A stretch of 64,000 bases of DNA, from the NCBI GenBank assembly GCA_964527765.1, contig CAZGQR010000002.1, positions 50,986 through 114,985 of the forward strand. The letters run 5' to 3'. This DNA is from an uncultured Planctomycetia bacterium (GTDB lineage Bacteria; Omnitrophota; Gorgyraeia; Tantalellales; Tantalellaceae). Shown here one piece after another: positions 21,129 through 34,875 of the stretch; positions within the stretch are counted from its first letter, which is position 1; every line of letters starts with the position of its first letter. Both the position numbers and the translations under genes were made by a program. Under the pieces are notes generated by a model. It did not search any database, was not told where the DNA came from, and worked only from the letters and a program-made list of their open reading frames with translations.

Positions 21129-21540
21129 TCCCCGGTAGCTCAATGGTAGTAGCGACTGGCTGTAAATGAGGCCATGACTTATGGAGCGACAGCGAACATA
21201 AGTCATGCGACCGAATTTATCCCGAGCCATAAGTTTTGCGAAGCAAAACAAAATAATCTGGCGAGGGATGAATGTTGCAGCTTCCAAGGGAAACCTTGGT
21301 TGAAAAATTGGGTGAATTCAGGGAATCCTACGGCAGAAATGCTATGGAAACCGTGAGCAAAGCCTGCTGAAGAGACGTTGTGTAAGCAGGAATGTGCAGA
21401 GACTAAGGGATGAGGATCTCTACCAATAAGCCCTGCAAGCGCCCAATACCCTTAGGGGTAATGAGATAGTCCTACCCTTACGGAAACGTAAGAAGGTTGT
21501 AACCAGTAGGTTGTTGGTTCGAGTCCAACCCGGGGAGCCA
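21129..21540 (+). tRNA. Intron-containing tRNA gene, most consistent with tRNA-Asn(GUU). Exon 1 is 21129-21163; exon 2 is 21500-21540 and ends in CCA.
   Basis: Exons: TCCCCGG-TA-GCTC..AGC-G-ACTGG-CTGT | TAA-CCAGT-AGGTT-GTTGG-TTCGAGT-CCAAC-CCGGGGA-G-CCA. The joined exons give a 76-nt cloverleaf with anticodon loop CUGUUAA, a U1:A72 pair, G73 and a TTCGAGT T-loop, all features of bacterial tRNA-Asn. The 5' exon ends in U and the intron ends in G, as group I splicing requires. An alternative junction would give Thr(UGU). Confidence 0.6.
21164..21499 (+). ncRNA. Group I self-splicing intron (336 nt) inserted in the tRNA anticodon loop
   Basis: Contains the conserved core elements R (GTGCAGAGACTA, around 21394) and S (GAGATAGTCC, around 21461). 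A P9-like hairpin CTTACG-GAAA-CGTAAG lies just before the terminal G; a P1-like pairing is possible between the exon end and GGCCA near the intron 5' end. There is no homing-endonuclease ORF. Confidence 0.65.
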
Positions 21541-27619: not shown

Positions 27620-27964
27620 ATGCATATTGACGCCTACTCATTCGGTTCCATGACAGTTAACGGCAGGACGTATACCTCGGATCTCATTGTCTTTCCTGAC
27701 AGGGTAGCTTCCGGCTGGTGGCGGATCGAGGGACACTCCCTGAGCGCGGAAGACCTGAAGGATGTCATAGTTTATAAGCCGGAAGTCCTGATCGTCGGCA
27801 AGGGCGCTTCCGGATGCATGAAGGTCCCCTTGTCCACGAGAAAAGCCCTGGAAGATAAGAACATCGAGATCATCGACAGGAATACGGGCGAAGCCTATGC
27901 CCTTTTTAATGAAGAGATCAAAAAGGGCAGGAGGGCTGTAGGCGCGTTCCATCTTACGTGTTAA
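27620..27964 (+). CDS. Mth938-like domain protein (DUF498)
   Basis: 114 aa; ...PEVLIVGKGASG...IEII pattern typical of the Mth938/NDUFAF3-like fold. Confidence 0.5.
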   Translation: MHIDAYSFGSMTVNGRTYTSDLIVFPDRVASGWWRIEGHSLSAEDLKDVIVYKPEVLIVGKGASGCMKVPLSTRKALEDKNIEIIDRNTGEAYALFNEEIKKGRRAVGAFHLTC

Positions 27965-28041: not shown

Positions 28042-28091
28042 TTGACAGGGGAAAGAAAATGATGTAAAATTGATAATGGAAACCATTTTCA
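28042..28091 (+). promoter_or_regulatory. Sigma70 promoter (TTGACA-17-TAAAAT) with an overlapping Fur-box-like palindrome, upstream of the fur-family gene
   Basis: -35 TTGACA at 28042-28047, a 17-nt spacer, -10 TAAAAT at 28065-28070. Immediately after comes TGATAATGGAAACCATTTTCA at 28071-28091; GATAATGG...CCATTTTC is a near-perfect inverted repeat resembling the Fur consensus GATAATGATAATCATTATC. Confidence 0.6.
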
Positions 28092-28110: not shown

Positions 28111-28581
28111 ATGCCGGGGAGAAGAGTTACGGGCCTGCACCGGTGGCATGGAAGGTTCAGGGGGTGCGGCTACAGGATGACCGTTCCGAGGCAGGCGATA
28201 CTGGACGTTTTAACTAAGACATCCAAGCACCTGAGCGCCGAGGATATATACTTTGAAGTCCATAAGATCTATCCCCATGTCGGGCTTACAACGGTCTATC
28301 GCACGCTGGAACTTCTTGTCCAGATGGACCTGATCTTTAAGTTTGATTTCGGGGACGGCAGGGCGCGGTATGAACTGGCAGAAGGGCCGAAAGGCGCTCA
28401 TCACCACCATTTGATATGCGTGAAGTGTAAAAGGGTAATAGATTATACCGATTTCATGGATGAAGAGGCGGAGTTTCTGAAAAGAGCGGAGAAGGGCCTT
28501 GCCAAAAAGTATAAGTTCGAGGTAAAGGGCCATCTTATCCGATTTTACGGATTATGCGAGAAATGTAAAAGTAAAAAGTGA
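28111..28581 (+). CDS. fur: Fur-family metalloregulator (Fur/Zur/PerR type)
   Basis: DNA-binding helix region, HHHHLICVKCKRVIDY...GLCEKCK with both CxxC pairs; the actual start may be 28156 (MTVPRQAILDVL). Confidence 0.8.
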   Translation: MPGRRVTGLHRWHGRFRGCGYRMTVPRQAILDVLTKTSKHLSAEDIYFEVHKIYPHVGLTTVYRTLELLVQMDLIFKFDFGDGRARYELAEGPKGAHHHHLICVKCKRVIDYTDFMDEEAEFLKRAEKGLAKKYKFEVKGHLIRFYGLCEKCKSKK

Positions 28582-28588
28582 AGGGAAG

Positions 28589-28981
28589 GTGAGTACGATG
28601 CCAGGTGGAGACAGAACTGGTCCAAGGGGCTTAGGGCCCATGACGGGTAGAGCTGCCGGATATTGCGCCGGCTATTCCGTTCCCGGGTACATGAACCCGG
28701 TTACCGGAAGGGGATGGTTTGCTTATGGCAGAGGCCGCGGCGGCGGCCGCGGATGGCGGAACTGGTACTATGCCACGGGCATGCCCGGCTGGCAGAGAGC
28801 CGCGTACGGTTATCCGGCTTTTGGAGCGGGAACATATCCCTATCCGCCGGAACCGACGGTCGACGAGGAAAAAAGTATGCTGAAGGAAGAAGCGGAAATG
28901 CTCAAACAGCAGCTTGAGGACATCCAGGACCGTATAAGCACTCTCGAAAAAGCCCGGGATTCAGAAGAGAAAAAGAAGTAA
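28589..28981 (+). CDS. DUF5320-like Gly/Arg-rich small protein with C-terminal coiled coil
   Basis: MPGGDRTGPRGLGPMTGRAAGYCAGY...GRGRGGGRGW; KEEAEMLKQQLEDIQDRISTLEK coiled coil; strong GGAGG-type RBS. Confidence 0.55.
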   Translation: MSTMPGGDRTGPRGLGPMTGRAAGYCAGYSVPGYMNPVTGRGWFAYGRGRGGGRGWRNWYYATGMPGWQRAAYGYPAFGAGTYPYPPEPTVDEEKSMLKEEAEMLKQQLEDIQDRISTLEKARDSEEKKK

Positions 28982-29004: not shown

Positions 29005-29385
29005 ATGCGGATAGCCATATCTACAGATGGGGATAGTGTATCCCCGCATTTCGGGCGCTGTCCTTCTTTTACTATTGTTGATATTGAGGAAGGTAATATA
29101 ATAAAGAAAGAGACCGTCGACAATCCGGGGCACCATCCGGGTTTCCTGCCCCAGTTTTTGCGCGAAAGAAACGTTAATTATATCATTGCCGGCGGAATGG
29201 GACAAAGGGCGGTTCAGTTGTTCGCGCAAGAGGGGATCGAGATAATAGTCGGGGTCAGCGGTACGATCGATGACGTCATACGGAAGATCGCGAACGGCAC
29301 TCTCGAAGGAGGAGAGAGTTTATGTGAACCCGGCGCGGGAAAAGGATACGGGGTGGACAAGACCGAATGCGAGCATGAGGAATAG
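29005..29385 (+). CDS. NifX/NifB-C/NafY-like (dinitrogenase FeMo-cofactor-binding fold) domain protein
   Basis: MRIAISTDGDSVSPHFGRCPSFTIVDIEEG...NVNYIIAGGMGQRA; a single-domain 126 aa protein. Confidence 0.75.
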   Translation: MRIAISTDGDSVSPHFGRCPSFTIVDIEEGNIIKKETVDNPGHHPGFLPQFLRERNVNYIIAGGMGQRAVQLFAQEGIEIIVGVSGTIDDVIRKIANGTLEGGESLCEPGAGKGYGVDKTECEHEE

Positions 29386-29444: not shown

Positions 29445-29810
29445 ATGAAGATTTGCGTAACGGCACAGGGTGATAACCTGGATGCGCAGGTGGACCCCAG
29501 GTTCGGAAGGTGCCAGTACTTTATTTTTGTCGATACGGATACGCTCCAGTTTGAGGCGGTCGAGAATCCCAGCGCCGATGTCATGGGGGGAGCCGGGGTC
29601 GTGTCAGGCCAGCTCGTGGCGGGAAAACAGGTCAAAGCGGTGCTTACCGGCAATGTCGGACCCAACGCTTTTCAGACGCTGCAGGCGGCAGGGATCGATA
29701 TCATCACCGGCGCTTCCGGCAGCGTGAAAGAGGCGGTCGAGAAGTACGGGAAAGGCGAATTGAAGTCTACGGGGGATCCTACCGTCGGCCCCAAGTTCGG
29801 AGTACAGTAA
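29445..29810 (+). CDS. NifX/NifB-C-like domain protein (second copy)
   Basis: MKICVTAQGDNLDAQVDPRFGRCQYFIFVDTDT...VKAVLTGNVGPNA. Confidence 0.75.
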   Translation: MKICVTAQGDNLDAQVDPRFGRCQYFIFVDTDTLQFEAVENPSADVMGGAGVVSGQLVAGKQVKAVLTGNVGPNAFQTLQAAGIDIITGASGSVKEAVEKYGKGELKSTGDPTVGPKFGVQ

Positions 29811-29840: not shown

Positions 29841-30059
29841 ATGCCATTGGGAGATGGAACAGGCCCCCGCGGCCGGGGGCCGGGGACCGGAAGAGGTATG
29901 GGTAGAGGCGGCGGACGCGGACCCGGAGGAAGGCCGGGCGCCGGACCCGGCGGCAACTGTGTGTGCCCGAGCTGCGGAACAAAAGCTCCCCACAGGCCGG
30001 GAGTTCCCTGTGCTTCGATGAATTGTCCGAAATGCGGCGCGGGGATGGTAAGGGCATAG
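29841..30059 (+). CDS. Small Gly/Arg-rich protein with C-terminal CxxC...CxxC zinc ribbon (DUF5320-like N-terminus)
   Basis: [30 protein letters not shown]...[27 protein letters not shown]; GGAGG RBS upstream. Confidence 0.45.
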
Positions 30060-30062
30060 CAT

Positions 30063-30911
30063 ATGATCATATCGATTGCCAGCGGAAAAGGCGGCACCGG
30101 AAAGACCACGGTGGCCACGAGTCTCGCTCTTTCAATAGAGCGCGCCGTTCAATTTTTAGACTGTGATGTTGAAGAACCGAACGCGCACATCTTCATAAAG
30201 CCTGATATCGAGAGCACGCAGGCTGTTTTTATTCCCGTGCCCGAGATCGACGAATCCAAATGCGATTATTGCGGCAGGTGTCAGGAAGTCTGCGTTTACA
30301 ACGCGATCGCCGTTATCCCTCCCGCGGAAAAACCCGTCCGCGCGGGAAAAACGCTTATTTTCCCGGAGCTGTGTCACGGGTGCGGCGCCTGTTCTTATTT
30401 TTGCCCGAAAGGAGCCATAAAGGAGGTCAATAGACAAATAGGCGTTGTCGAAAAAGGCAAAAAGGAGGGACTGGAGTTCGTGCACGGCAGGCTCAATATC
30501 GGGGAACCGATGGCTCCGCCGCTGGTAAGAGCGGTCAGACGACATGTCGATCGCGCAAAAACCGTTATAATCGATGCTCCCCCGGGGACATCCTGCCCGG
30601 TCATCACTTCCATAAAGGATACGGATTACTGTATTCTTGTTACCGAACCCACTCCCTTCGGGCTTTACGACCTGATCCTGGCGGTCGAAGTTTTGAAGAA
30701 ACTGAAGATCCCTTTCGGTGTTATTATTAACCGCGCCGGCCTGGGCAACGATGAGACCGATAAGTATTGCAGGAAAGAGAATATCCCCGTTCTCATGAAG
30801 ATACCGTTCAGCAGGGAGATCGCAGCGGCTTATTCCAGGGGCACTGCTGTTGTCGAAGCATTCCCCGAGTATAGAGAACGCTTTATGAAAGTATTTAAGG
30901 ATATAAAATAG
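30063..30911 (+). CDS. MinD/Mrp-superfamily P-loop ATPase with inserted 2x[4Fe-4S] ferredoxin domain
   Basis: Deviant Walker A IASGKGGTGKTT; CDYCGRCQEVCVYNAI and CHGCGACSYFCPKGAI cluster motifs. Confidence 0.8.
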   Translation: MIISIASGKGGTGKTTVATSLALSIERAVQFLDCDVEEPNAHIFIKPDIESTQAVFIPVPEIDESKCDYCGRCQEVCVYNAIAVIPPAEKPVRAGKTLIFPELCHGCGACSYFCPKGAIKEVNRQIGVVEKGKKEGLEFVHGRLNIGEPMAPPLVRAVRRHVDRAKTVIIDAPPGTSCPVITSIKDTDYCILVTEPTPFGLYDLILAVEVLKKLKIPFGVIINRAGLGNDETDKYCRKENIPVLMKIPFSREIAAAYSRGTAVVEAFPEYRERFMKVFKDIK

Positions 30912-30912
30912 A

Positions 30913-31770
30913 ATGAAAGAGTTAGTGATCATAAGCGGTAAAGGCGGAACGGGTAAGACCATACTTACCGCGGCTTTCGCCTCTTTGGCCGAAAACAAGG
31001 TAATGGCTGATTGTGATGTGGACGCGGCGGACCTGCATCTCGTTTTAAAGCCTGCCGTAAAAGAGCGCCACCTGTTCAAGAGCGGGATGACGGCGCTTAT
31101 AGACAAGGGTCTCTGTACGGGGTGCGGGAAGTGTATCGATGTTTGCCGCTTTGATGCCATAGGCGAAGACTTTGTCGTGGATGCTGTCGCCTGTGAGGGC
31201 TGCGCTTTTTGCAGCCATGCGTGCCCGGAAGGGGCCATAAGGATGGAAGAGAACACCGCGGGTCAGTGGTTCATCTCCGACACGAGATTCGGTCCCATGG
31301 TCCACGCAAAACTGGGCATTGCCGAGGAAAATTCCGGCAAGCTTGTGAGCCTGGTCAAGAAAAAAGCCAGGGAGATAGCCGAGAGGCGGAACCTGGAATG
31401 GATAATTGTTGACGGCGCCCCCGGGATAGGGTGCCCGGTCATTGCCTCTATTTCCGGCGTCAGCTGCGCGCTGGTAGTGACCGAGCCGACCGTCTCGGGC
31501 CTGCACGATGCCGACCGGGTAATAAAAGTGGCCAGGCATTTCGGCGCCCCCGTAAGACTTGTGATCAATAAGTATGATTTAAATCCCGAGATGACGGAAA
31601 AGATCGAGGGATATTGCCGGGAGAACGATATACCGCTCGTAGGGAAAATACCTTTTGATGAATCTGTCGTAAAAGCTGTGGTGAGAGCTGAAACAGTGAT
31701 AGAATATTCTCACGGGCCGGCAGGACAGGAGATCAGGAAAATATGGGACAAGTTAAAAGTTGAAATTTAG
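30913..31770 (+). CDS. MinD/Mrp-superfamily P-loop ATPase with inserted ferredoxin domain (second copy)
   Basis: ISGKGGTGKT; CTGCGKCIDVCRFDAI and CEGCAFCSHACPEGAI. Confidence 0.8.
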   Translation: MKELVIISGKGGTGKTILTAAFASLAENKVMADCDVDAADLHLVLKPAVKERHLFKSGMTALIDKGLCTGCGKCIDVCRFDAIGEDFVVDAVACEGCAFCSHACPEGAIRMEENTAGQWFISDTRFGPMVHAKLGIAEENSGKLVSLVKKKAREIAERRNLEWIIVDGAPGIGCPVIASISGVSCALVVTEPTVSGLHDADRVIKVARHFGAPVRLVINKYDLNPEMTEKIEGYCRENDIPLVGKIPFDESVVKAVVRAETVIEYSHGPAGQEIRKIWDKLKVEI

Positions 31771-31786: not shown

Positions 31787-32416
31787 ATGAAATATATCCC
31801 CAAGTTAAATGATACGGAAATAGAAGATAATCACCGGCACTTTGAAGAAAGGGCCTCCGTCTATAAAAGAAAAGGGCTTGATTTCATGAAAAGCCGGGAG
31901 TTTATTATCGGGACCGCCGGCCCGCTGAAAGGCAGAGTGCTGGAGATAGGCGCGGGCAACGGCCATACCACGCTGGCGCTGGTGAAAATGGGATACAGGT
32001 TCACGGCGGTAGATAACGACAGGGAATCCCTGAAAATAACGGCCATGAACCTCGCTTACGAGAAAGCGCTGGATAGCGTCGAGCTTTATGTCATGGACGG
32101 GAGGTCGCTGACTTTCGCGGACGGCAGTTTCGACAGCGTAGTCATGGTGAACCTGTTCCATCACGTGAGTGACGTGGAAAGACTCCTTTCGGAAGCGGAC
32201 AGGGTTTTATGCGAAGGCGGCAAGCTTGTCCTGGCTGATTTTAACGGAAAAGGGATGGAAATAATAGGTTCCGTTCACGGACAGGAAGGGCGCACCCACG
32301 AAGATTCCGGCGTCAGCCGGGGCCGGGTATATTCTTACTTAAACGGTCTCGGCTACAAAACCGAAAGATACGACGAAGATCATCACTGGATCCTGATAGC
32401 GAAAAAAGCAAAATAG
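31787..32416 (+). CDS. Class I SAM-dependent methyltransferase
   Basis: VLEIGAGNGHTTLAL, motif I, Methyltransf_11-like. Confidence 0.7.
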   Translation: MKYIPKLNDTEIEDNHRHFEERASVYKRKGLDFMKSREFIIGTAGPLKGRVLEIGAGNGHTTLALVKMGYRFTAVDNDRESLKITAMNLAYEKALDSVELYVMDGRSLTFADGSFDSVVMVNLFHHVSDVERLLSEADRVLCEGGKLVLADFNGKGMEIIGSVHGQEGRTHEDSGVSRGRVYSYLNGLGYKTERYDEDHHWILIAKKAK

Positions 32417-32632
32417 ATGCAAGTAAGGGGTATGCGCAAAATGGCCTGCAAATGGTTCGATGTCTGCCCGCTCAAGAGATTTTACGAAGAAGGCAGGCTG
32501 CATGAAAAGTGGGTCAGGGGTTACTGCAAGGGCGATCATTCAAGATGCGTGAGGAAGAAGATGGAAGAAGACGGGACATATCACCCCGATAACATGCTCC
32601 CGGACGGAACGATCGATAAGAACCTGCGATGA
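32417..32632 (+). CDS. Small Cys/His-rich protein (71 aa), overlapping the radical SAM gene by 4 nt
   Basis: MACKWFDVCPLKRFYEEGRLHEKWVRGYCKGDHSRCVRKK; Cys at positions 11, 17, 37 and 44; its stop overlaps the downstream start (ATGA). Confidence 0.45.
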   Translation: MQVRGMRKMACKWFDVCPLKRFYEEGRLHEKWVRGYCKGDHSRCVRKKMEEDGTYHPDNMLPDGTIDKNLR

Positions 32633-33405
32633 CCAAAAGAAAATATAAATATATTTACGGACCGGTGCCTTCGTGGCGGCTCGGAAGTTCTCTCGGGGTG
32701 GACCCCATCCAGGGCAGGGAAAAGGTCTGCTCGTTCGATTGTCTTTATTGCCAGCTCGGCAGGACCGAGATCTTTACCGCCAGAAGAAAGAAGTTCGTCG
32801 CCACCTCCGAGGTCATGAAGGAAATAAATTCCCTGCCCCCGGTCAAGATCGATTACATAACGTTTTCAGGGATGGGCGAACCCACCCTGGCCAAAAATCT
32901 GGGCGAGATGATAAGGGCGGTCAAGAGGGCCAGGAAGGAAAAAGTGGCGGTGCTTACGAACGCCTCTCTTATGTACAGGAAAGATGTCCGGAGGGACCTG
33001 TTAAAAGCCGATCTTGTGGCGGTCAAGATGGACGCTTCTTCGGAAAAACTGTTGCGTAAAGTGAACAAGCCCACCGGGGGCATTACATTGGGGCGCATTG
33101 TAAGGTCCATAAAGGATTTTAAGGCCGCGTATAAGGGAAAACTTGCCCTGCAGATCATGTTCGTGAAAGAGAACGAGAAATACGCGAAAGAAATAGCGGG
33201 GATAGCGAAAGAGATCGGTCCGGACGAAGTTCAGATCAATACTCCCCTGCGGCCATGCGCAGTAAAGCCTTTAACAAGAAATAAGATCAGCAGGATCAAA
33301 AAGTATTTTCAGCCGTTGAATGCCGTTTCCGTTTATGAAAGCAGGCGTAAGAAGGTCAGGCCGATCAGCACGGAGGAAACCCTGAAAAGGAGAGGTAAGA
33401 TATAA
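32629..33405 (+). CDS. Radical SAM protein
   Basis: CSFDCLYCQ (Cx3Cx2C), with YGPVPSWRLGSSLGV at the N-terminus; 258 aa. Confidence 0.75.
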   Translation: MTKRKYKYIYGPVPSWRLGSSLGVDPIQGREKVCSFDCLYCQLGRTEIFTARRKKFVATSEVMKEINSLPPVKIDYITFSGMGEPTLAKNLGEMIRAVKRARKEKVAVLTNASLMYRKDVRRDLLKADLVAVKMDASSEKLLRKVNKPTGGITLGRIVRSIKDFKAAYKGKLALQIMFVKENEKYAKEIAGIAKEIGPDEVQINTPLRPCAVKPLTRNKISRIKKYFQPLNAVSVYESRRKKVRPISTEETLKRRGKI

Positions 33406-33851
33406 TGGGCACGATGAAATCGAAGAAGTTTAGTTACAGGTGTTCCGTCAGGTGGGCGGGAGAGAAAAAGGGCATACTCTCATCGGCGGGCAAGCCGGAT
33501 ATCGAGGTGGCCACGCCCCCCGAATTCAGGGGCCATGCGGGCATGTGGACCCCCGAAGAACTGTTCGTCGCTTCGGTCAATATCTGTATCAAGACCACGT
33601 TTCTGCATTATGCCGAGAAGAACAGTTTCGAGATCCTGAGCTATGAAAGCGACGCGGAAGGGGTCCTGGAAAAAGTAGGGGACCGGTTCATGTTCTCGGA
33701 GATAAATGTCAGGCCCAGGATCCGTGTCAGATCAGGCGCCGAGATCGATAAGGCAAAGGAATTTATAGGGCTTTCAGAGAAGAACTGTCTTATTTCCAAT
33801 TCCGTGGAATCCAGGGTCGAAGTTCTTGCTGAGATCAGCGCGGGAGGTTAG
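33405..33851 (+). CDS. OsmC/Ohr-family protein
   Basis: 148 aa; WTPEELFVASVNICIKTTFLHYA is the typical OsmC core. Confidence 0.65.
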   Translation: MGTMKSKKFSYRCSVRWAGEKKGILSSAGKPDIEVATPPEFRGHAGMWTPEELFVASVNICIKTTFLHYAEKNSFEILSYESDAEGVLEKVGDRFMFSEINVRPRIRVRSGAEIDKAKEFIGLSEKNCLISNSVESRVEVLAEISAGG

Positions 33852-34170
33852 AATGGCGGATTTTAAACAGATAGATGAAGCGAGGAGCCTGCTGGGGCTT
33901 GATGAAGATTCGACCCTGCAGGAAATAAGGAAGGCTTATCGAAGGCTTGCCTTGAAATATCATCCCGATAAGTGCAAGGAGAAAGACAAAAAGAAGTGCG
34001 AGGAAATGTTCAAAAAGATAAATCACGCCAATGGCATCATCCTGTCTTACTGCGCGAATTACAGGATCTCTTTTAAGGAAAAAAGCGTCAAGGAAACAAC
34101 GATGGATAAGGAGCTGTACGACCACCTGAAAAGGTTCTACGACGGCTGGTGGGGAAACCTGGATTTATGA
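33852..34170 (+). CDS. J-domain (DnaJ-like) protein
   Basis: LQEIRKAYRRLALKYHPDK carries the HPD motif; GGAGG RBS before the ATG at 33852. Confidence 0.75.
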
Positions 34171-34790
34171 GCGATTTTTTTGACGAGCATTACAAGCAGT
34201 ACGACGCATGGTACGACAGGAATAAATTCGCTTATTTGTCGGAACTGGAGGCCGTGAAGAAAGCCCTTCCCCGAGAAGGTCACGGGCTGGAGGTCGGGGT
34301 CGGTTCCGGGAGGTTCGCCGCTCCGCTGGGGATCGCGGTGGGCATCGACCCCTCGAAAAAAATGGTGGAACTTGCCAGGAAAAGGGGAGTGGACGCCCGC
34401 CCGGGCTCAGGTGAGGACCTTCCGTTTGAAGATGCCACCTTCGATTACGTGGCGATAATCGTTACATTGTGCTTTGTCGGCGATCCCGGACAGGTTATAG
34501 GGGAATCAGCAAGGGTCCTGAAGGGCCGCGGGAGGATCATCATCGGGATAGTGGATAAAGACAGCTTCCTGGGCGAGTCCTACCGGGAGAAAAAAAGCGT
34601 GTTTTACGGCCGCGCGCATTTCTTCAACGTTAAAGAAGTCACGTTAATGCTCAAGGAAGCGGGATTTGGCGAGTTCTCGTATTATCAGACCTTGTTTGAC
34701 CTGCCGGATAAAATGAGCTCCGTTGCGGAACCGCGGGAAGGTTTTGGCAAAGGCGGTTTTGTCGTTATCAGCGGGGTCAGACGCGGATGA
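34166..34790 (+). CDS. Class I SAM-dependent methyltransferase (Methyltransf_11)
   Basis: LEVGVGSGRFAAPLG motif I; the track ORF starts at 34149. Confidence 0.7.
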
Positions 34791-34875
34791 CCTATTTCTT
34801 TTCTTATCCCGGAGTATGGTGTATAATTTAACCGTTCATCGTGAAGCGTTTTTTTAATGTTACAAGGTCATCCGT

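Follow-up and report, generated by a model that had tools for sequence, protein, structure and literature searches.

A small four-cysteine protein in an ORP-like operon of an Omnitrophota bacterium: a possible metal-binding accessory of ORP/Mrp-type gene neighbourhoods

We analyzed a 64-kb stretch of DNA from an uncultured Omnitrophota bacterium (contig CAZGQR010000002.1; this whole stretch is called the window, and operon coordinates follow its numbering) and focused on a short open reading frame (ORF) for a protein with four invariant cysteines. With moderate confidence, judging from its sequence, its relatives and its gene neighbours, we propose that this protein serves gene neighbourhoods of the orange protein (ORP) and Mrp type as a metal-binding accessory module, most likely one that carries an iron-sulfur (Fe-S) cluster. 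The 63-aa ORF is a free-standing copy of a helical four-Cys domain that is widespread in anaerobic bacteria and archaea, and the four invariant Cys would bind a metal centre, for which we favour an oxygen-labile Fe-S cluster over zinc. The gene itself would be an optional module, inserted between a methyltransferase gene (MT1) and a radical S-adenosylmethionine (SAM) gene in an ORP-like operon led by a Fur-family gene. Its product probably assists Fe-S enzymes encoded in the operon, perhaps as an acceptor or donor of a cluster or of electrons, and its modification by these enzymes seems unlikely.

A conserved four-cysteine domain and its neighbours

The motif of the small protein reads C-x5-C-P ... 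W-x3-Y-C-x6-C-x-R ... (H)PD-x-M-L-P-[DN]-G. An earlier sequence-only reading of this region had called the ORF 71 aa long, with four Cys at positions 11, 17, 37 and 44. The four Cys are present and invariant across homologues, and the length needs correction: translation most likely starts at the ATG at 32441, which gives 63 aa, because a Shine-Dalgarno-like AAGGGG motif (32425-32430) lies 10 nt upstream of this codon and because the public gene calls on identical contigs also give 63 aa and homologues mostly measure 64-67 aa. Among 105 aligned family members, C3, C9, C29, C36, P10, Y28, R38 and H48 (63-aa numbering) show little or no variation, the mean column identity is 65%, and invariant positions run from residue 3 to residue 56. 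The His of the HPDNMLPDG motif is kept among close members; in divergent, tandem-duplicated members the four Cys are kept and the His is lost.

At E ≤ 1e-3, the homologues comprised 166 cluster representatives, with identities of 57-86%, and the ORF therefore stands far above a chance reading frame. Contigs from one genome per species gave at least 564 tblastn-confirmed matches, and an exhaustive search brought the family to 353 representatives at 50% identity. Bacterial members come from Omnitrophota, Atribacterota, Halanaerobiales (including the cultured Halanaerobium kushneri), Bacteroidales (Anaerophaga thermohalophila), Cloacimonadota and Desulfobacterales; archaeal members come from Helarchaeota, Bathyarchaeia, Thermoplasmata, Woesearchaeota and others, so that the family reaches into the Asgard archaea. 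All named source lineages among the matches listed (at least 564) are anaerobic.

The AlphaFold model of the protein (pLDDT 84) consists of three short helices without strands of three or more residues. The sequence-only reading had offered a zinc ribbon as one identity for the small protein, and this is not supported, as the Cys spacings are x5 and x6 instead of CxxC knuckles and the model is all-helical. The protein itself matched nothing in Pfam or NCBIfam; the 105 members searched against Pfam at E ≤ 1 returned noise alone (UPF0203, MORN_2, Topo-V HhH), a search of PDB sequences likewise gave only noise at E > 0.5 and no relative, and a literature search for the motif HPDNMLP retrieved no paper. 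As far as the family libraries and the literature searched show, the four-Cys domain is undescribed.

Gene neighbourhoods were compared in the best 80 genome loci encoding the small protein, with immediate neighbours counted in 79; the ORFs of these loci were called by a custom script and scored against the window proteins. Genes of ORP type lay within 10 kb of the small ORF in 46 of the 80 loci (MinD-type ATPases with 4Fe-4S motifs in 29, NifX-like proteins in 26, Mrp-like proteins in 32). The commonest gene directly upstream encoded an Mrp/NBP35-type P-loop ATPase (18/79 loci; PF10609, 319 bits, CPHC motif), and MT1 came second (7 loci). Directly downstream, a radical SAM gene was found in 15/79 loci, all in Omnitrophota-like bins, an ARMT1/DUF89 phosphatase gene in 9 and an ArsP-type permease gene in 8, with a few cases of metallo-beta-lactamase (MBL)-fold, OsmC or uracil-DNA glycosylase (UDG) genes. 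No radical SAM gene lay near the small ORF in 56/80 loci, and OsmC was present in 7/80.

Three particular contexts were observed besides. In seven Atribacterota loci (L016, L021, L023, L024, L034, L059 and L065) the small gene is followed by a split pair of ArsP_1-type permease genes and preceded by MBL-fold or Mrp-like genes, a context unlike that in Omnitrophota. Stand-alone family-4-type UDG genes adjoin the small gene in or beside ORP-like clusters of Cloacimonadota (L039, L073, L074) and archaea (L053, L061), and the UDG-like proteins of such clusters may do more than DNA repair. L173 (6656-7933), in a neighbourhood of the same type, encodes a fusion of a cation-efflux (CDF) transporter with a Nitro_FeMo-Co (NifX-like) domain, which hints at metal homeostasis.

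The four-Cys domain also occurs fused to enzymes. It forms a C-terminal extension of family-4-type UDG (PF03167) in 8/80 loci, with one further truncated case (L045), and more UDG fusions were present among the other cluster representatives. The exhaustive search added fusions to MT1-like methyltransferases (P0337, P0342, P0381), of which P0381 aligns with the window MT1 over residues 27-207 (E 8e-6). Other fusions involve phosphatidylserine decarboxylase (P0246, L081) and an MBL-fold protein (P0253). Fusion proteins, too, adjoin Mrp-like genes, as in L052. We had considered a NifX-like identity for the middle domain of the methyltransferase fusions and rejected it when BLASTP showed no similarity. 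Because the domain is grafted onto several enzymes and also stands free beside Fe-S carriers, it has the look of a general-purpose cofactor-binding or docking module.

These fusions account for a public mislabel. Stand-alone members carry the NCBI name "uracil-DNA glycosylase" because it was carried over from the UDG fusions; examples among proteins of 64-78 aa are P0009, P0014, P0046, P0053, P0067, P0083 and P0112. Family-4 UDG is a [4Fe-4S] enzyme, and in the fusions the four-Cys domain is its C-terminal extension, whereas the stand-alone protein has no UDG domain: PF03167 was found neither in the window protein nor in the 105 members at E ≤ 1. The similarity is confined to the extension of the fused UDGs, and a family-4 UDG identity for the small protein was therefore ruled out. 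A review of noncatalytic domains in DNA glycosylases leaves the four-Cys extension unmentioned.

The operon and its likeness to ORP clusters

The sequence-only reading had described an operon of six ORFs, from MT1 to a second methyltransferase gene (MT2). All six exist where it placed them, their families were recovered above the Pfam cut-offs (PF08241 twice, PF04055, PF02566 and PF00226), and the gene anatomy was right. However, the region is not a self-contained operon, because gaps of at most 59 nt join seven upstream genes to it, including a Fur-family gene and the ORP-like half that had been missed and that sets the actual context. The complete block comprises 13 genes at about 28.1-34.8 kb, all on the + strand, of which the six ORFs form the distal half. 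Its features are as follows.

27886-27902: terminator-like hairpin, just 5' of the promoter
28042..28070 (+): sigma-70-like promoter TTGACA-17-TAAAAT ahead of the operon, 11/12 consensus matches, predicted from the consensus match alone
28111..28581 (+): Fur-family metal-responsive regulator, first gene of the operon (PF01475, 108 bits)
28589..28981 (+): DUF5320 protein (PF17253, 105 bits)
29005..29385 (+): first NifX-like/orange-protein-like Nitro_FeMo-Co domain protein (PF02579, 90 bits)
29445..29810 (+): second NifX-like/orange-protein-like Nitro_FeMo-Co domain protein (PF02579, 85 bits)
29841..30059 (+): 72-aa Gly-rich/Cys-rich ORF with the pattern CxCPxCG...PC...NCPxCG, no Pfam match
30063..30911 (+): MinD/ParA-type P-loop ATPase with two inserted [4Fe-4S] ferredoxin motifs, Orp3/Orp4-like architecture (CbiA/ParA and Fer4 families)
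30913..31770 (+): second MinD/ParA-type ATPase with two [4Fe-4S] motifs (CbiA/ParA and Fer4 families)
31787..32416 (+): class-I SAM methyltransferase MT1 (PF08241, 79 bits; below all NCBIfam cut-offs)
32441..32632 (+): small four-Cys protein, most likely 63 aa (71 aa from the start at 32417), a conserved domain without Pfam or NCBIfam relative
32629..33405 (+): orphan 258-aa radical SAM enzyme, CX3CX2C (PF04055)
33405..33851 (+): OsmC/Ohr-family protein (PF02566, 56 bits; under every NCBIfam subfamily cut-off)
33853..34170 (+): stand-alone J-domain protein of 105 aa with a conserved C-terminal tail (PF00226, 60 bits; start from public gene calls)
34167..34790 (+): class-I SAM methyltransferase MT2, final gene of the operon (PF08241)
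34774-34793: terminator-like hairpin at the 3' end of MT2 and of the operon

A Fur-family gene lies upstream of a matching gene set in 16/80 related loci. The public gene calls place the probable starts of the J-domain gene and MT2 at 33853 and 34167, with an ATGA overlap between the two genes. The genes flanking the block are unrelated to it (TrkH, ornithine cyclodeaminase, ribonucleotide reductase, PEBP, DUF498, amino-acid permease, Rex), and neither a second copy of the small gene nor an Mrp, UDG or ARMT1 gene was found within the window.

The composition of the block recalls the ORP cluster of Desulfovibrio. ORP clusters encode MinD-type ATPases with two 4Fe-4S motifs (Orp3/4), a NifX-like orange protein (Orp8), a small Fe-S protein (Orp5) and the Mrp/NBP35 carrier MrpORP (PMC6345978). 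In anaerobes, Fe-S proteins and carriers include the ORP complex and MrpORP (PMC6345978, PMC8359166), and the role of ORP/Mrp clusters, which is still unclear, has been linked to an anaerobic, Fe-S-rich lifestyle (PMC8359166). Like that cluster, the window operon encodes two MinD-type ATPases with two [4Fe-4S] motifs each (Orp3/4), two Nitro_FeMo-Co/NifX-like proteins (Orp8-like), a DUF5320 protein and a small Cys-rich ORF, and is of a kind confined to anaerobes; elsewhere, the four-Cys gene stands directly behind an Mrp/NBP35 carrier, which is the defining domain of MrpORP (PMC6345978). Unlike that cluster, the window has no Mrp/NBP35 gene: tblastn gave only weak matches to the MinD-4Fe-4S genes, and the NCBIfam MrpORP model scored 42-50 bits against a cut-off of 450. 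The window operon is also headed by a Fur-family gene and a sigma-70-like promoter instead of sigma-54/OrpR control, and it carries MT1, the four-Cys protein, the radical SAM enzyme, OsmC, the J-protein and MT2 as extras beyond the genes described for the Desulfovibrio cluster. The ORP literature searched mentions neither a radical SAM enzyme nor methyltransferases, and the four-Cys protein is not among the Orp proteins described there. On its predicted gene content, the window operon is an ORP-like cluster variant in which the NifX-like and Orp3/4-like components are present and the Mrp component is missing.

Within ORP clusters, a comparable small protein is Orp5. The D. alaskensis member Dde_3197 has been reported to bind a [2Fe-2S] cluster (cited in PMC6345978). 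The four-Cys protein resembles Orp5 in being small, Cys-rich, encoded in ORP-type clusters of anaerobes and presumably an Fe-S protein, but its four-Cys motif differs, and the ORF at 29841-30059 would be the likelier Orp5-type candidate. This 72-aa ORF has a DUF5320-like Gly-rich N-terminus and a homologue in the sister operon L171 (1465-1662); the public gene call there follows another, incorrect frame, and the homologue lies in the correct one. It is possibly a small Fe-S protein of the Orp5 type.

Two further observations concern the distal end of the operon and the wider window. The J-protein (about 105 aa, with a ...FYDGWW..LDL tail) was always followed directly by MT2, often with an overlap, in 10/80 small-ORF loci and in sister operons; examples are 33853-34790 of the window, L007 15723-16703, L060 9832-10766 and L171 4780-5723. 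The two genes thus form a conserved pair. Outside the block, a group I catalytic intron (RF00028) was found at 21260-21493 (+) at the Rfam gathering level (71 bits, E 4e-16, full-length model). With its intron option, ARAGORN called a tRNA at 21129-21540 as Asn-GTT (anticodon uncertain) with a 336-nt intron at position 36, and this tRNA has a clear T-arm and a ...GCCA 3' end after the intron.

The radical SAM gene behind the small ORF

As the sequence-only reading had stated, the small ORF overlaps a 258-aa radical SAM gene with a Cx3Cx2C motif: the ORF ends in ...CTG CGA TGA, and the ATG of the radical SAM gene lies within the ATGA at 32629-32632, a 4-nt overlap. Because of this overlap, the two proteins would be co-produced. 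Among the 15 loci with this gene order, the 4-nt overlap recurs in 6 and a gap of 0-1 nt is found in 5 more (L001/L006 are examples of the gene order). The radical SAM genes behind the small ORF belong to two different subtypes, one of 258 aa and one of about 316 aa (L007, L031).

We also ran the reverse test, in which metagenomes were scanned with the radical SAM family alignment. This gave 80 loci with 38-62% identity, and neither phmmer nor tblastn found the small protein in any of them (0/80). Many of these loci adjoin MinD-4Fe-4S, NifX-like, Mrp-like, MT2 and DnaJ genes. In the closest sister operon, L171, whose radical SAM protein is 69% identical, the gene order matches from Fur to MT2, only 1 nt lies between MT1 and the radical SAM gene, and neither the small ORF nor OsmC is present. 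The relatives L172 and L173 likewise lack the small ORF. In sister operons, MT1 is the immediate 5' neighbour of the radical SAM gene. The conserved core is (MT1 or Mrp)-radical SAM-...-DnaJ-MT2. Given the two-way locus counts and the sister operons, we regard the small ORF and the radical SAM gene as co-members of one neighbourhood and not as an obligate pair. The sequence-only reading had itself held that the pairing should be given up if the small ORF were not conserved beside this radical SAM family in other genomes, and this is largely what the counts in both directions and L171 show.

It had likewise held that assignment of the enzyme to a housekeeping tRNA or rRNA modification family would count against its reading, and no such assignment was obtained. 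The Joint Genome Institute (JGI) label "wyosine [tRNA(Phe)-imidazoG37] synthetase" on this orphan family is a misnomer, as TYW1/COG0731 wyosine synthase was ruled out (TIGR03972, 21 bits versus 318; second Cys triad absent); RlmN was also ruled out (16 bits versus a cut-off of 290). The CX3CX2C motif of the enzyme corresponds to C34-x3-C38-x2-C41, and one further Cys, C210, is near-invariant. Profile searches, which the sequence-only reading had proposed for both proteins, left the small ORF without any family and the enzyme without a subfamily. Its Pfam matches were limited to PF04055 and a weak Fer4_12; all NCBIfam subfamilies fell far below their cut-offs (at best 55 bits versus 380), with SPASM-type models at 25-55 bits against cut-offs of 250-400. 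Neither a SPASM/twitch domain nor a recognition element (RRE) of ribosomally synthesized and post-translationally modified peptides (RiPPs) was found in it by Pfam, NCBIfam or a conserved-Cys check.

The family is large (at least 7,997 sequences at E ≤ 1e-10 among 8,000 candidates scored, wider radical SAM relatives included), close members measure 256-269 aa, and an invariant N-terminal segment, YGPVPSWRLGSSLG(I/V)DP, precedes the CX3CX2C loop. The structural model (pLDDT 83, pTM 0.86) shows a partial TIM-barrel core. Its best matches (viperin, LipA, the activating enzyme of pyruvate formate-lyase (PFL), TYW1 and NifB) are generic, with TM scores of 0.5-0.63 and 13-22% identity. The radical SAM core is shared with minimal enzymes of the viperin/MoaA/PFL-activase type and with TYW1, whereas identity is low and the YGPVPSWRLGSSLG(I/V)DP motif is specific to this family. 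The enzyme is an orphan to which no subfamily can be assigned.

What the small protein may do

The case for an Fe-S-carrying accessory module draws on several features. The Cys residues, the Cys-Pro, the anaerobic lineages and the Fe-S carrier neighbours are suggestive only with regard to Fe-S binding, and the invariant Cys-Pro together with a shell of conserved aromatics would suit a buried cluster site. J-proteins such as HscB assist Fe-S transfer, and we take the J-domain protein and the Fur-family regulator of the operon as possible pointers to an Fe-S context. Several points weigh against this proposal. Metal binding is proposed from the four invariant Cys only, and zinc or another thiophilic metal would fit the sequence equally well. 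About 40% of the loci carry no ORP or Mrp gene on the sequence covered, although many such contigs are short, and the contexts of these loci are heterogeneous (ArsP-type permeases, ARMT1/DUF89, MBL, YggS, deformylase). Phosphatidylserine decarboxylase and methyltransferases are not Fe-S enzymes, and their fusion to the domain would not naturally be expected from cluster delivery. Lastly, the 15 Omnitrophota-like loci with their overlaps and short gaps make it conceivable that the small protein is a partner of the radical SAM enzyme in this one lineage.

Such a partnership would make the small protein a dedicated companion of the enzyme, providing an auxiliary cluster in trans or a private low-potential reductant at a 1:1 ratio through translational coupling. 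The ATGA overlap in the window, the recurrent gene order and the two radical SAM subtypes that follow the small ORF all fit this explanation, as does an enzyme with only one Cys beyond its CX3CX2C cluster. However, the small ORF is missing from all 80 loci of the reverse test and from L171, L172 and L173, more than half of its own loci (56/80) have no radical SAM gene nearby, and its domain is fused to unrelated enzymes; we therefore consider a dedicated partner possible but unlikely. The layout that first drew attention, a Cys-rich small ORF overlapping a radical SAM gene between two methyltransferase genes, had been read as that of a RiPP-like or small-metalloprotein maturation module. The metalloprotein half of that reading is probable, with four invariant Cys in a conserved, folded domain. 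The RiPP half is superficially plausible: in SuiB/SuiA, sactipeptide and ranthipeptide systems a small Cys-containing ORF also lies directly 5' of a radical SAM gene, and SuiB is a distant structural match of the window radical SAM core (rank 26). Unlike those systems, this gene set has no SPASM/twitch or RRE domain, variable core, protease, exporter or obligate co-occurrence. A precursor or dedicated substrate would hardly be conserved over its full length across bacterial and archaeal phyla, fail to co-occur with its supposed maturase (15/79; 0/80; L171) and be fused to housekeeping-type enzymes. This explanation is largely refuted, and we give it very little credence.

The small protein could alternatively be a Cys4 zinc domain with a structural, regulatory or nucleic-acid-binding task, which tethers, for example, UDG to DNA or to a partner and is regulatory in its stand-alone form. 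Its recurrent fusion partner is indeed a DNA repair glycosylase, Cys4 sites are often zinc sites, and K12 and R38 are conserved. On the other hand, the charge is near balance (about 13 K/R versus 11 D/E by direct count), the 105 members yielded no zinc-finger or helix-turn-helix Pfam match at E ≤ 1, no relative was found among solved structures of DNA-binding domains, and a zinc domain would leave unexplained the co-location with Fe-S carriers and the confinement of the best 80 loci to anaerobic lineages. A zinc domain is hence doubtful in our view. A thiol-disulfide relay, in which two Cys pairs feed OsmC-type peroxidases or other thiol enzymes of an oxidative-stress regulon, appears quite improbable. 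In L050 and L083 the gene right after the small ORF encodes OsmC, in the window one gene lies between the two, 13 loci carry a Pyr_redox_2 disulfide reductase, thioredoxin is also encoded nearby, and the Fur-family regulator could be PerR-like. Nevertheless, the protein has neither a thioredoxin fold nor a CXXC motif, OsmC is rare (7/80 loci), and the strongest association is with Mrp/ORP genes.

Returning to the Fe-S-carrying accessory module that we favour, we can speculate further that a prokaryotic Mrp/NBP35-ORP system for Fe-S delivery uses the four-Cys domain as a dedicated adaptor for docking or for accepting clusters. Whether free-standing or attached as a C-terminal tag, the domain would label client enzymes of anaerobes (family-4 UDG, radical SAM enzymes, methyltransferases) for redox control or the insertion of a cluster, and the client-targeting adaptors of eukaryotic cytosolic Fe-S assembly would be its counterpart in logic. 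We regard this extended version as rather unlikely.

Overall, our finding is a modest family-level annotation lead and not a new natural-product system. The analysis defines a mis-annotated four-Cys domain that travels with ORP/Mrp clusters and has been grafted onto several enzymes, shows that the labels "uracil-DNA glycosylase" and "wyosine synthetase" are wrong, and points to two further constituents of these neighbourhoods, a large orphan radical SAM family and a conserved J-protein/methyltransferase pair. If the adaptor idea were true, the domain would open a way to study how anaerobic bacteria and archaea choose their Fe-S clients.

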